DNA of 64,000 nt from an uncultured Bacteroidia bacterium (GTDB lineage Bacteria; CAIWAD01; BS150m-G50), in assembly GCA_964501185.1 (NCBI GenBank), contig CAZCRT010000007.1:16581-80580 (forward strand). The letters run 5' to 3'. Within the stretch, counting starts at the first letter, position 1. Each line of letters starts with the position of its first letter. The position numbers and the translations under genes are program-made. Positions 55,996 through 60,696 of this stretch are shown here, piece by piece. Below the pieces are notes generated by a model. It worked only from the letters and a program-made list of their open reading frames with translations. It had not been told where the DNA came from and ran no database searches.

Positions 55996-56721
55996 ATGTC
56001 AACTGTACCCTACCGTCGAATTCTCCTGAAACTCTCCGGCGAGGCTCTCGCTGGTAATGGGGGACAGGGTATTGACGCAAAGGTAATAGCCCGTATGGCT
56101 GAAGAGATCGCCACAGTATCTCGAGGTGGCGTTCAGATAGGCCTGGTCATAGGTGGTGGCAATTTCTTCCGGGGTGCGGTTGCATCCGATCTCGGTATGG
56201 ACAGGGTTCCCGCCGATCACATGGGAATGCTGGCCACAATGATCAACGGCCTGGCAATGCAACAGGCAATTGAGAAGGTGGGCGTACCTGTCCGGCTCAT
56301 GTCTGCCATCCGTATGAATGAAGTCTGCGAACCATTTATTCAACGCCGGGCCAACCGTCACCTGGACAAGGGACGTGTGGTGATTATCGGTGGTGGAACC
56401 GGTAACCCCTATTTCTCTACCGACACTGCCGCAGTGTTGCGTGCGCTGGAGATTGAAGCTGATGCGATCATCAAGGGTACCAAAGTCGATGGTGTTTACT
56501 CGGCAGACCCTGTAAAGGACAGTTCCGCACAGATGTACAGCCACCTCAGCTACAGTGAAGTGGTTGCCCGCAAGTTGGAGGTGATGGATTTCACCGCCGT
56601 TACACTCTGCATGGAAAACGATTTGCCATTACGTGTTTTCAATATGAACAAAGAAGGCAACCTGCAGCGTCTGCTCCAGGGTGAGGATATCGGAACTACT
56701 ATTTCGGGGGAGAAATCATGA
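55996..56721 (+). CDS. pyrH: UMP kinase
   Basis: [43 protein letters not shown]. Confidence 0.98.
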
Positions 56722-57272
56722 AAGAGATGATTGCCGAACATGAAGTAAGAATGAAAAAGACCATTGAGGACCTGCACGAAAGGCTGAGCAGCATCCGTAC
56801 CGGTAAGGCATCGGTTTCCATGTTGAACAACATCACTGTAGATTACTATGGTACTCAGGTGCCGATCAATCAGACTGCCGGTGTCAATGTTCCGGAACCA
56901 CGCATGATTACTGTCAGCCCCTGGGAAAAGAACATGTTACCGATTATTGAGAAGGCTTTACTGGCTTCTGATCTGGGTATTACGCCCAGCAATGACGGTA
57001 CTATCATCCGTCTGGCTATCCCGGAACTTACCGAGGAGAGACGCCTGGAGATGGTCAAGCAGATCAAGCAACAGGGCGAAGATCACAAGGTTGCTCTACG
57101 CAATATTCGCCGTGATGCTAATGACAAGCTCAAGAAAATGCAGAAGGACAGCGCTATCTCTGAAGACCAGGAACATGATGGCCTGGACGAGGTTCAGAAA
57201 TTGACTGATAAATATGTCGCAGAGATTGATGAAATTCTGCAGCACAAAGAAGCGGAAGTAATGGAAGTCTAG
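56718..57272 (+). CDS. frr: Ribosome recycling factor
   Basis: [36 protein letters not shown]. Confidence 0.98.
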
Positions 57273-57293
57273 CAGGCTTTCTCCTACCCCCCC

Positions 57294-59090
57294 ATGGCCC
57301 TCAATAATAGAAATTTCTCCATCATTGCCCATATCGACCATGGGAAATCCACAATTGCAGACCGGCTCCTGGAGCTGACCGGGACTGTTGCTCCCTCAAA
57401 AATGCGCAAGCAGGTGCTCGACGACATGGAGCTCGAGCAGGAGCGTGGCATCACTATCAAGGCACATGCTGTCACCATGGCTTACAGGGCTGACGATGGT
57501 AATGAGTATACCCTGAACCTGATCGACACACCGGGACATGTTGACTTCAGTTATGAAGTTTCACGCAGCCTGGCTGCCTGTGAAGGGGTGTTGCTTGTGG
57601 TTGACGCCACGCAGGGAATTGAAGCACAGACTCTCTCCAACCTCTATCTGGCGCTTGAACACGATCTGCAGATTATTCCAATTATCAACAAAATAGACCT
57701 CCCCAGCGCACAGCCGGATGTTGTTCGGCATCAGATTGTAGAACTGCTCGGTTGTGAGGCAGAAGAGGTGATAGCAGTTTCCGCCAAGACAGGTGAAAAC
57801 TGTCACGACATTCTGGAAGCGGTTGTCAGATCAACGCCACCACCTGTCCTTCGGGATGATGATCCCCTGCAGGTATTGATATTCGATTCTGTATTTGACA
57901 GCTATCGTGGTGTGATCGCTTTTGTAAGAGTGATGGCAGGCAGGATACAGAAGGGAGATCTGGTTCGACTGTTCTCCAACGAGCGCAAATTCAGTGTTGA
58001 TGAGGTCGGCATACTGCAGCTGGAACGGAAACCAGATGAACAGCTGACATCAGGTGATGTGGGTTATGTGATAACCGGTGCCAAAGATGTCAAGGATATC
58101 AAGGTCGGGGATACCATGACCCATTTCCGTGACGGCGCTGTGGAAAGACTCCCCGGCTATCAGGATCCAAAACCGATGGTTTTTGCCGGGATTTATCCGG
58201 TCAATACTGATGACTATGAACTGTTGAGGGATTCTCTTGCTAAACTGGTACTCAACGATGCTTCATTGACATACATCCCCGAGACATCGACAGCACTCGG
58301 ATTTGGATTCCGTTGTGGTTTTCTCGGCCTGTTGCATATGGAAATCATCCAGGAGCGGCTGGACCGGGAATATGAGATAGATATTATCACTACGGTTCCC
58401 AATGTCGAATACCGTCTCAAACTGCCTCAGGAAGACTGGCGTGTGATCGATAATCCCGCAGAGTTTCCCCGTCAGGCAAAGGTGGATGATGTGGAGGAAC
58501 CTTACATCACTGCCTCAATTATCACGCACAGCGACTATATCGGCAACCTGATGAAACTGACGATGGAGCGGCGCGGTGTCTATATCTCTACCGAGTACAT
58601 TGACCAGCAGCGAGTGAATCTGAAGTATGAGCTTCCACTGGCTGAAGTTGTTTTCGATTTCTATGACCGCCTGAAAACCGTTTCCCGGGGTTATGCTTCG
58701 CTCGATTATGAACTGACTGATAATCGAAGTGGCAAACTGGTACGGTTGGATATTCTACTCAATGGAGATCCGATTGACGCACTCTCCATGATTGTGCATC
58801 AGGATCGGGCGTTTGAGTGGGGGAATAAGCTGACTATCAAGCTGAAGGAGCTGATACCAAGGCAGCAATTTGATGTTGCGGTGCAGGCGGCTATCGGAAC
58901 CAAGATTATCGCTCGCACAACTGTGAAAGCGCTACGCAAGAATGTTACAGCCAAGTGCTATGGTGGTGATATTACCCGTAAACGCAAACTGCTTGCCAAA
59001 CAGAAGGCCGGTAAAAAGCGGATGAAACAGGTTGGCAATGTGGAAGTACCGCAGGAAGCGTTTTTGGCCATGCTAAAAGTCGAACGGTAG
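57294..59090 (+). CDS. lepA: Elongation factor 4 (LepA)
   Basis: [73 protein letters not shown]. Confidence 0.99.
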
Positions 59091-59446
59091 GCACAGAAAT
59101 GGTAGTGCATAGCGAGGGCGATTAATAGTGTAGCAGGTTTGAGACTGCTGACAGTCGATGGTTTGGCGATGTTAAAAGTAGAGCGCTAGTCTCAAGAACT
59201 ATCACGCATGGCCAAAGCGATTGAATCGATGGGTCGTTCTAAATATCTGACTGTCGATGGTTTAGCGATGCTAAAAGTAGAACGGTAGGTTCAGAAACTA
59301 TCGTTCATCGCTAAAGCGATTGAGCCTTCGGGTTGTTCATTGAGTGGTAGACTCGCTGGCCTCGCCATGCTTAAGGTGGAGCGGTAGGCACAGAAGTGAT
59401 AGTGTATGTCAAGGGCGATTGATAGTGTAGCAGGTTTGAAACTGTG
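59064..59446 (+). repeat. Degenerate array with an exact 99-bp period, each unit carrying a copy of the lepA 3' end (LAMLKVER*)
   Basis: LAMLKVER* blocks start at 59064 (native), 59163, 59262 and 59361. A partial unit follows to about 59446. Confidence 0.9.
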
Positions 59447-59540
59447 ATTATTGACCATTATTCAAGGAACAAAAAACAGTTGTCATGCATCTTATTAGCG
59501 TAGCAACAGGCATAACAACTGAACAGATAGCGGAGCAAAT

Positions 59541-60302
59541 GTGAACATCATCAGAAAATACCTCGATTGGCGCAGGCGGCGGAAGATATTTCTGAAGGAG
59601 CGGGCCAAACGTCGTGGCCCATTGCTTGAATGGCTGGATACGATCGTATCAGTGACAGTCACCGTCTTTCTTATTCGCACAGTAGCGGTAGAAGCCTATC
59701 GGGTACCGACCGGTTCAATGGAGAAGACAATTCTACCTGGTGATTTTCTGCTGGTGAATAAATTTCTCTACGGAATCCGCACACCGGAGTGGATTGGTGT
59801 TCCCTTCACTGATTTTGGATTTGACCTGCCGGTCTACCGTTTTCCCTCGTTTGTTGAGCCGGATCGGGGTGATGTCATCGTTTTCAAATATCCCCGCGAC
59901 CCTGATGTAAACTTCATCAAGCGTTGTGTTGCCCTGCCGGGGGATACCCTGGAGATACGTAACAAGCAGCTCTACATCAACGGTGACATGAGCGCACTGG
60001 ACTCACATGCACAGTTTGTTTCGGATCGTATCATGCCCGCCGGGTATAATGATCAGCGGATCTCACCGGCAGGAATGGGAAACAAAGATAACTATGGACC
60101 GGTGATTGTACCACCGGATCAGTTTTTTATGATGGGTGACAATCGGGATAACAGTGAGGATTCACGATTCTGGGGATTTCTTCCACGAGAAAACATTGTT
60201 GGTAAGGCCTGGATCATATATTTTTCCTGGGAACAACGTTATTCACCCTGGCTGCTCTACAAGAAGATTCGCTGGAGCCGCCTGCTGGATGTGATGAGAT
60301 AA
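59541..60302 (+). CDS. lepB: Signal peptidase I
   Basis: VPTGSME.T...GD.LLVNKF, RGDVIVF, FIKRC, FMMGDNRDNSEDSRFWG. Confidence 0.97.
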   Translation: MNIIRKYLDWRRRRKIFLKERAKRRGPLLEWLDTIVSVTVTVFLIRTVAVEAYRVPTGSMEKTILPGDFLLVNKFLYGIRTPEWIGVPFTDFGFDLPVYRFPSFVEPDRGDVIVFKYPRDPDVNFIKRCVALPGDTLEIRNKQLYINGDMSALDSHAQFVSDRIMPAGYNDQRISPAGMGNKDNYGPVIVPPDQFFMMGDNRDNSEDSRFWGFLPRENIVGKAWIIYFSWEQRYSPWLLYKKIRWSRLLDVMR

Positions 60303-60327
60303 GCTGAACTGTTGACGGAGTAGACTG

Positions 60328-60696
60328 ATGCAGATACAGGTTTTGCGTGCCAAACTTCACCAGGCACGGGTAACACAGGCCAATCTCGAATACCATGGTT
60401 CTCTCTCTCTCGATGAAGATATCATGGATCGTGCCGGTATTCGGCGTTATGAGAAAGTGCTTATCGGCAATATGACCAATGGGCAACGGCTGGAAACATA
60501 CGCCATACCTGCCCCTCGTGGTTCACGCGAGGTGGGTGCCAATGGTGGTGCAGCCCGGCTCTGTGCCACGGGTGACAGACTGGTAGTCATGACTTTCGGG
60601 CTGGTGGATGAGCAGGAGGAGTATCATCCACAGGTGCTGGTGCTGGATAGTGATAACAATATCATCGAAGAGCTGGACTACGACCCGGCACCCTGA
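60328..60696 (+). CDS. panD: Aspartate 1-decarboxylase
   Basis: AKLHQARVT.ANLEYHGS, NGQRLETYAI, NGGAAR, GDRLVV. Confidence 0.95.
   Translation: MQIQVLRAKLHQARVTQANLEYHGSLSLDEDIMDRAGIRRYEKVLIGNMTNGQRLETYAIPAPRGSREVGANGGAARLCATGDRLVVMTFGLVDEQEEYHPQVLVLDSDNNIIEELDYDPAP

Follow-up and report, generated by a model that had tools for sequence, protein, structure and literature searches.

Short duplicates of the 3' end of a gene are best known from the attachment (att) repeats of integrative elements, in which the duplicate lies downstream of the gene, keeps coding potential because it can stand in for the end of that gene, and can form arrays. Tandem accretion at att sites, also together with cis-mobilisable elements, is known for integrative elements, and repeats of 27 bp have reportedly been found for ICESt1 and ICESt3 at fda, a core size similar to that of the repeats described here. 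These repeats lie between lepA and lepB in a 64-kb window (64,000 nucleotides of contig CAZCRT010000007.1, from an uncultured marine Bacteroidia bacterium), where the end of lepA, eight codons and a stop, is followed by three further versions of itself that encode the same peptide and differ from it only at silent positions. The locus departs from att repeats in that the would-be elements between its 27-mers are only 72 nucleotides (nt) long in the window, carry no gene, are conserved across species, are apparently derived from lepB, occupy a single locus and have no integrase nearby. Comparison with relatives shows that homologous arrays exist in five species, and that their copies of the lepA terminus follow the genetic code.

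The lepA gene (57294..59090, plus strand) encodes elongation factor 4 of 598 amino acids (aa), as identified from the open reading frame (ORF) list, from homologues and from the Pfam domains GTP_EFTU, EFG_C and LepA_C on an identical protein. It ends in LAMLKVER*, a tail that is an ordinary conserved feature of LepA. The native 27-mer, TTG GCC ATG CTA AAA GTC GAA CGG TAG, occupies 59064..59090, and three copies follow on the same strand, copy 1 at 59163..59189 (TTGGCGATGTTAAAAGTAGAGCGCTAG), copy 2 at 59262..59288 and copy 3 at 59361..59387 (CTCGCCATGCTTAAGGTGGAGCGGTAG). All read LAMLKVER*, with the coordinates and letters exactly as an earlier note on this DNA had given them. The period of the array is exactly 99 nt three times over, in frame with lepA, and the homology with lepA starts at the Leu codon, both again in agreement with that note. 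A degenerate LAMLKVER* pattern has four matches in the window and none in 100 shuffles. The divergence between units is too great for Tandem Repeats Finder, which returned no rows for the array. Of the other ORFs in the window, none is followed by copies of its own last eight codons.

The array is genuine and not an assembly artefact. An identical LepA is found on 22 contigs from JGI, ENA and Logan assemblies, and each of the six contigs that span the whole spacer (JGI and ENA) reproduces the same four 27-mers with the same spacing and length. On recounting, copies 1 to 3 differ from the native terminus at 14 positions (5 + 3 + 6), and every difference is silent. The earlier note had argued that neutral decay of non-coding duplicates could not produce this. 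When such decay was simulated, with shared changes counted once (12 events), an all-silent outcome arose in 0 of 2,000,000 runs, and the analytic probability of such an outcome lies between 3e-8 and 6e-7. Hence the test of synonymous change against neutral duplicates did not return the result that would have explained the array away. These comparisons support the view that the copies did not decay neutrally; they appear to behave as if filtered by translation of a LepA terminus.

Relatives were drawn from a large protein collection at LepA identities of 93, 87, 85, 77 and 69%. The 87% protein is named Candidatus Delongbacteria, and one 69% contig is labelled Delongbacteria. GTDB representative genomes offered no LepA closer than 65% identity and no instance of the pattern, and a metagenome pattern scan for paired copies returned species D only. 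Including the window species (W), arrays homologous to that of W are present in five species, the four others having LepA proteins 85–93% identical to it. Species H (L102; LepA 93%) has two extra copies at periods of 99 and 99 nt, and species G (L099; 93%) has three at 148, 98 and 98 nt, plus one decayed unit. In species D (L093/L094/L098; 87%) there are two extra copies at 107 and 99 nt, one of them ending in TGA, and in species E (L095/L096; 85%) two at 100 and 100 nt, whose 27-mers are identical to one another and to the native one except for TAG/TAA. The 77% relative (F) and the 69% relatives (L100, L101) have a single terminus, a lepA–lepB spacer of 0–94 nt and no array, so that the array is a derived feature of one subclade. 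It is old, since lepA has a synonymous divergence (dS) of 0.64–0.87 among W, H and G and of 1.1–2.1 from these to D and E. The decayed unit of G lies between its first linker and copy 1 (L099 1320-1370), begins TTGGCCA and has lost about 19 nt of codons; it shows that units can die, unlike the intact copies. A 46-aa ORF annotated across the G array by the gene caller of the source (L099 1316-1456) has no Pfam hit and is most likely spurious.

Across these species the substitutions in the 27-mers follow the code closely. Over eight units, differences between 27-mers are distributed 30/21/143 over codon positions 1/2/3, compared with 211/252/280 for the linkers. Nearest pairs among the 12 non-native copies differ by 25 silent and 2 non-silent changes, the latter being Ala to Val in copy 2 of G (G2) and Glu to Lys in copy 2 of D (D2). 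ATG is invariant in 12/12 non-native copies, and their last codon varies among TAG, TAA and TGA and is always a stop. Codon 5 of the D and E copies specifies Arg, in keeping with the LepA of each species, and is CGT or CGA, as against AGG in the native D terminus. In split-box codons (AA_, GA_, TT_) the third base is a purine in 26/26 cases, whereas in four-fold-box codons it is a pyrimidine in 23/58. This contrast between two-fold and four-fold sites is specific to the genetic code, beyond what three-base periodicity would give. An antisense ORF sharing the wobble positions was considered and rejected: the minus-strand peptides (e.g. YRSTLSMA) show replacement changes, and the plus frame is therefore the constrained one. 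Translation of whole linkers was likewise rejected, as they show no clear codon periodicity, several contain stops and the number of open linkers is about that expected by chance.

Linkers are 71–80 nt long, apart from one of 121 nt. The two linker types described earlier for W were recovered, although not all linkers there are the full 72 bp: linker 0 (type A, 59091..59162), linker 1 (type B, 59190..59261) and linker 2 (type B', 59289..59360) are complete, and linker 3 (type A', 59388..59444) is cut short, its homology running for about 57 nt to near 59444. Linkers 0 and 3 are 81–95% identical (85% over the shared repeat); for linkers 1 and 2 the identity over the first half is 75%. In the type-A linker a 30-nt motif that makes up the first half, CAGAAATTGTCGTGCATAGCGAGGGCGAT, is 92% identical among D, H and G at a lepA dS of 1.5. 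Because the linkers are conserved while the silent sites of those species are saturated, they appear to be functional, neither junk nor foreign DNA.

Each unit also contains a putative hairpin, P1, whose 5' arm is the first 10 nt of the 27-mer and whose 3' arm is a 10-nt linker segment, centred on GCATNGC, that is the reverse complement of the unit's own Leu-Ala-Met-Leu codons. In W the 3' arms lie at 59107-59116 (GCATAGCGAG), 59206-59215 (GCATGGCCAA), 59305-59314 (TCATCGCTAA, which pairs with TTAGCGATG of copy 2 at 9/10 positions) and 59404-59413. Over 11 units 88% of cells pair, and every unit pairs at 8–10 of its 10 positions; only 1/500 shuffles did equally well, and slid controls paired at 23–51%. 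Three pairs changed on both sides, as exemplified by TTAGCGATG/CATCGCTAA, TTGGCAATGC/GCATTGCCAA and the CTCGCC.../...GGCGAG types. The loop of 34–42 nt holds the remaining codons and the stop, and the native helix of D and of E, read from the sequences, reaches 13–14 pairs and extends into lepA. The unit is thus a hairpin module whose base pairs are kept by compensatory change, its folding as RNA being assumed. An all-against-all column scan for further conserved helices gave P1 only, and single-unit folds gave a variable second hairpin with none common to the units. No Rfam family matched the H or the G locus at E <= 1, and what the window spacer gave was at noise level (E > 3). With a linker profile (nhmmer) and a covariance model, the module was found only in lepA–lepB spacers, in a search that covered the 64-kb window and 164 kb in all.

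The origin of the linkers may be sought in lepB. Read in frame +1, the start of several linkers resembles LepB residues 4-14 at the expected position: FKNYLASLKR in linker 0 of H corresponds to LepB FKQYLAWRRR (p=0.007 by shuffling), KNYHAWPKRLNRWVVL in linker 1 of W to LepB RRYFAWRRRRKEFLSL (p=0.013 by shuffling; KNYHAWPKRL in this linker resembles residues 5-14), and FRRWVALPKR in linker 0 of E to FRRYFAWRRR at the same LepB position (p=0.17). The type-A linker reads FRNCRA-stop in this frame. F has lepB directly next to lepA, and so does one 69% relative; in the second of the two 69% genomes sampled, 94 nt separate the genes. In array-less relatives (L097 2750-2765; L100 4285-4295) the Val-Glu codons at the end of lepA contain the GGAG that serves lepB, whose start comes after the lepA stop or overlaps with it. 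This end of lepA formerly served as the initiation region of lepB as well. The arrays of G, D, E and H end with a 27-mer, and a GGAG-containing remnant is found just 5' of lepB (TAGTGGAGCAAATGTG in H compared with AAGTGGAGCGTTAATTG in F). Derivation of the linker from the preceding 24 lepA codons was rejected, the identity in register being 28%, which is chance level.

The LepB-like linker starts, the abutting outgroup genes, the arrays that end in a 27-mer and the GGAG remnant lead us to propose, with moderate support, that the array is an old, vertically inherited tandem duplication of the lepA-stop/lepB-start junction and did not arise by insertion of elements. Ancestrally, lepB would have begun straight after the lepA stop, and a segment of about 100 nt, comprising the last eight lepA codons, the stop and the first lepB codons, would have been tandemly duplicated several times. 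The Leu codon at which homology begins would be the duplication breakpoint. The lepB pieces would then have lost their start codon, and their former Ala/Asp-Trp-Arg codons (GCA TGG CCA A) could have become the 3' arm of P1, in which the variable middle base would go back to the second position of the ancestral Trp codon (TGG, TAG, TCG, TTG). P1 would pair this arm with the Leu-Ala-Met-Leu codons of the same unit, leaving the other codons and the stop in the loop. The modules are presumably transcribed in the lepA–lepB intercistronic RNA, where the hairpins could affect the fate of the lepA/lepB mRNA or the expression of lepB.

In one case a copy and the true terminus have also changed places. 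The native unit of H has its counterpart in copy 2 of W and the linker behind it: the 27-mers differ at 1 position, and the linkers are 81% identical over their first half. The W unit that follows copy 2 matches unit 1 of H; therefore, the working terminus of H corresponds to an internal copy in its sister W. In E the 27-mers are identical (apart from TAG/TAA) beside linkers 0 and 1 that are just 72–81% identical, and in H the 27-mers of units 0 and 2 differ by one base beside partly similar linkers. Paralogous linkers within one genome are often closer to each other than to those of other species, as with linkers 0 and 3 of W. These patterns are marks of unequal exchange and conversion at the 27-mers. 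Through such recombination a copy may become the working lepA end, and vice versa, and this exchangeability is, in our view, the likeliest of the causes considered for every copy staying readable as LAML(K/R)VER-stop, possibly reinforced by real decoding of the copies. Exchangeable termini on a junction-duplication array are our leading explanation for the selection on the copies, and a tentative one. It comes close to an alternative that the earlier note had listed, namely silent cassette shuffling that alters lepB expression.

Several observations weigh against this explanation or against parts of it. Among the copies within W, G and D, silent sites are near saturation, with 3–9 differences of about 10, so that the copies must have persisted for at least about one dS unit; over that time roughly 20 replacement sites per copy should have changed unless they were directly selected, yet next to no replacements are observed. 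Visible recombination seems too rare to purge such defects, and homogenisation by conversion would erase silent differences as well, which makes direct code-aware selection on the copies seem required. Gene conversion alone is ruled out as the cause for W, G and D by the silent differences that these arrays retain. In addition, there is no unit-number polymorphism among the W contigs. As for the junction origin, the peptide-level match between linkers and LepB comes from two related linkers at p of about 0.01, and a DNA-level local alignment of the linkers to lepB is not significant by itself. As for the hairpins, the type-A 3' arm is constant whatever its partner, and part of the apparent covariation of P1 therefore stems from a few unit types; folding of the entire spacer is just a little better than that of shuffled sequence (z = -1.4), and an RNA role of the modules is assumed.

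If direct selection acts on the copies, decoding them is one candidate. Each module could be a mini-cistron, minimally AUG-Leu-Lys-Val-Glu-Arg-stop or longer with an in-frame upstream TTG/CTG, so that ribosomes finishing lepA re-initiate from module to module and relay translation to lepB across 450 nt; in a variant, lepB depends on the termination events, and the nascent peptide together with the stop acts on the ribosome. To our knowledge, translation is the only process that reads the genetic code, and the substitution pattern is code-specific both in its two-fold and four-fold sites and in its exchange of stop for stop. The invariant ATG and the ancestral stop-start coupling, with GGAG inside the Val-Glu codons, also agree with re-initiation. 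As Shine-Dalgarno use is low in this organism (18/59 ORFs against a 17% background), the absence of such a motif is weak evidence against initiation. Against decoding, there is no conserved start context, the ATG lies within the P1 stem and the ORFs 5' of the 27-mer are not conserved, a stop lying 12 nt upstream in G2. Constraint starts exactly at the Leu codon, the homology boundary, and not at the ATG, the linkers have no clear codon periodicity, no start codon follows the stops, and the identity of the peptide with the LepA tail is left unexplained. We consider decoding of the copies possible, if rather unlikely. That the spacer as a whole would be a chain of tiny hairpin-closed cistrons, relaying or sensing lepA termination in order to set lepB translation, we regard as unlikely. 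A trans-acting factor, either protein or RNA, could also bind the invariant positions of the lepA terminus and use the copies as extra operator or decoy sites; since the terminus could vary only at silent positions, such a factor would come to read the invariant ones. The same positions are constrained in the native terminus and in the copies, and each copy is displayed in a conserved hairpin loop beside the conserved motif CAGAAATTGTCGTGCATAGCGAGGGCGAT. Yet purine-only two-fold sites, Arg as AGG or CGT/CGA and swaps among three stops are poorly explained by a binding site, no candidate factor is apparent, and no such site was found elsewhere in the 164 kb. We think this decidedly improbable.

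The earlier note had preferred the serial, site-specific insertion of a minimal element of about 99 bp bringing its own lepA terminus, and the present data speak against that view. Such a non-autonomous element would be inserted repeatedly by a recombinase acting in trans, with the older termini pushed downstream. It would fit the sharp edge of homology at the Leu codon, the arrays of G, D, E and H, which begin and end with a 27-mer in the manner of attL and attR, the identical or nearly identical 27-mers beside dissimilar linkers in E and H, and distal copies that share codon choices with array-less outgroups: most use the CTY GCC ... GAG choices of outgroup termini, and copy 3 of W is an example. 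However, the linkers are vertically conserved and LepB-like, and no recombinase domain was listed for genes up to 6 kb away in W, nor in D and E for about 3 kb on the downstream and 1.8 kb on the upstream side of the array. The unit was found at no other locus in the 164 kb searched, and the LAMLKVER-stop pattern had no match in viral contigs, where the earlier note had suggested looking for related att sequences. The silent sites of neighbouring 27-mers have diverged far more than the linkers have: the 27-mers of units 0 and 3 of W differ at 6/27 positions, compared with 14% for their linkers. Instead of the polarised record of insertions that had been suggested, there is no gradient of divergence from the native terminus (5, 3, 6 in W; 8, 5, 5 in G; 6, 1 in H), and H has a native-like copy at its distal end. 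A 99-bp double-stranded circle is, moreover, mechanically implausible. Taken together, insertion of an element appears very improbable. Finally, readthrough of TAG would yield a LepA with C-terminal 33-residue repeats, each ending in LAMLKVER. All periods are 99 nt in W and H, the lepA-frame stops through the W array (59088, 59103, 59187, 59286, 59385) are all TAG before the first other one, TGA at 59397, and the frame runs uninterrupted through both H linkers and two of those in W. The copies of D (107), E (100, 100) and G (148, 98, 98) are equally conserved but out of frame with lepA, which refutes readthrough for these species and makes the all-TAG stops of W probably a by-product of unit homology. 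TAG is also an ordinary stop in the window, ending 15/59 long ORFs including frr, a TAG interrupts linker 0, and open linkers are about as numerous as chance predicts. There is hardly any likelihood left for readthrough.

Sequence outside recognisable reading frames is not expected to follow the rules of the genetic code, and here it does so in five species, which have diverged so far that silent sites are saturated. If the termini are exchangeable, as we tentatively prefer, the end of a gene would be held in interchangeable copies, a built-in redundancy at a conserved translation-factor gene. If the copies are mini-cistrons, unannotated short cistrons would be translated and their peptide would matter. 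If they form a relay, a recycled gene junction would have become a new kind of cis-regulatory device, in which the peptide plus stop matters to the ribosome. Were a factor to bind them, it would read coding sequence while ignoring wobble positions. Similar arrays at other junctions may be widespread and unseen, because gene callers and repeat finders miss them.

Variation within populations and the surroundings of the array are given here for completeness. Over the roughly 6 kb compared, same-population W contigs differ at only three single-nucleotide polymorphisms (SNPs), all inside the array: 59246 T/C in linker 1 (TAT/TAC in the lepA frame), 59282 A/G in copy 2 (GAA/GAG, silent) and 59305 T/A at the first base of the unit-2 3' arm. 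Two Logan contigs of one run, one ending at 59281 and the other beginning at 59306, suggest coexisting haplotypes in one sample. Such clustering of SNPs in the array was not seen in the D and E populations. From 55996 to 60696 the genes stand in the order pyrH, frr, lepA, array, lepB, panD. Directly 5' of lepA, 21 nt from its start, lies frr, which encodes the ribosome recycling factor; this position could be of significance should the array depend on post-termination ribosomes. The list of genes within 6 kb comprises ribosomal proteins L13, S9 and S2, EF-Ts (tsf), UMP kinase (pyrH), frr, lepA, lepB, panD, a U32 peptidase, a methyltransferase and a histidine kinase. A promoter and terminator scan of the spacer found nothing on the plus strand. 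lepB (59541..60302, plus strand; from the ORF list), encoding signal peptidase I, starts with GTG and has a GGAG at 59532-59535. A lepB-leader hairpin on the same strand (59477..59521), read from the sequences, lies 20 nt 5' of this GTG; its 17-nt arms (TTGTCATGC / GCATAACAA) resemble a shortened P1 with the same C.A mismatch beside AUGC/GCAU, and it is kept in H and G.

Beyond att repeats, the array can be set beside several other known systems. It resembles repetitive extragenic palindromic sequences (REPs) and bacterial interspersed mosaic elements (BIMEs) in having repeated hairpin units just past a stop, between genes of one operon, and a comparable role in mRNA stability or differential expression is plausible. 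REPs, however, are small-looped short palindromes that occur scattered in many copies and contain no gene-derived codons; the stem of the present module includes the gene's own codons, its loop spans 34–42 nt, and its family is confined to a single spacer. Within the 164 kb the unit occurs only in lepA–lepB spacers, so that a REP/BIME or a dispersed repeat resembling miniature inverted-repeat transposable elements was rejected. Coupled stop-start junctions and leader cistrons offer another parallel, in that the unit duplicates a junction with the lepB GGAG in the last lepA codons. Here no start follows the array stops, the GGAG is not conserved in the copies, and lepB has a GGAG of its own 110–250 nt beyond the last copy. 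Tolerance of wobble positions in coding targets is known from homing endonucleases and from TnsD at glmS. Such recognition would give a three-base periodic constraint without translation; this likeness is one of principle only, and it fits the two-fold versus four-fold pattern and the stop swaps poorly.

Three further families were tried and rejected. Integron cassettes are bounded by attC sites with RYYYAAC ... GTTRRRY cores; the unit boundaries here read GGT|TTGGCG, GGC|CTCGCC and GAT|TTGGCA and show no conserved GTTRRRY, and there is no integrase among the neighbours. In a clustered regularly interspaced short palindromic repeat (CRISPR) reading, the 'repeats' vary at all wobble positions and the 'spacers' share homology among themselves. 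A diversity-generating retroelement would confine changes to adenines of its template repeat; here C>G, C>T, C>A, A>G and G>C all occur, and no reverse transcriptase is found among the neighbours. Literature on lepA as an integration site, or on Delongbacteria, offered nothing relevant, and a limited search found no published description of gene-terminus copies under code-aware constraint in an intercistronic spacer. Since every known family tested fails in a defining feature, be it possession of a recombinase or of foreign cargo, dispersal, core motifs or a start codon beyond the stop, we provisionally place the lepA–lepB array in a new category.

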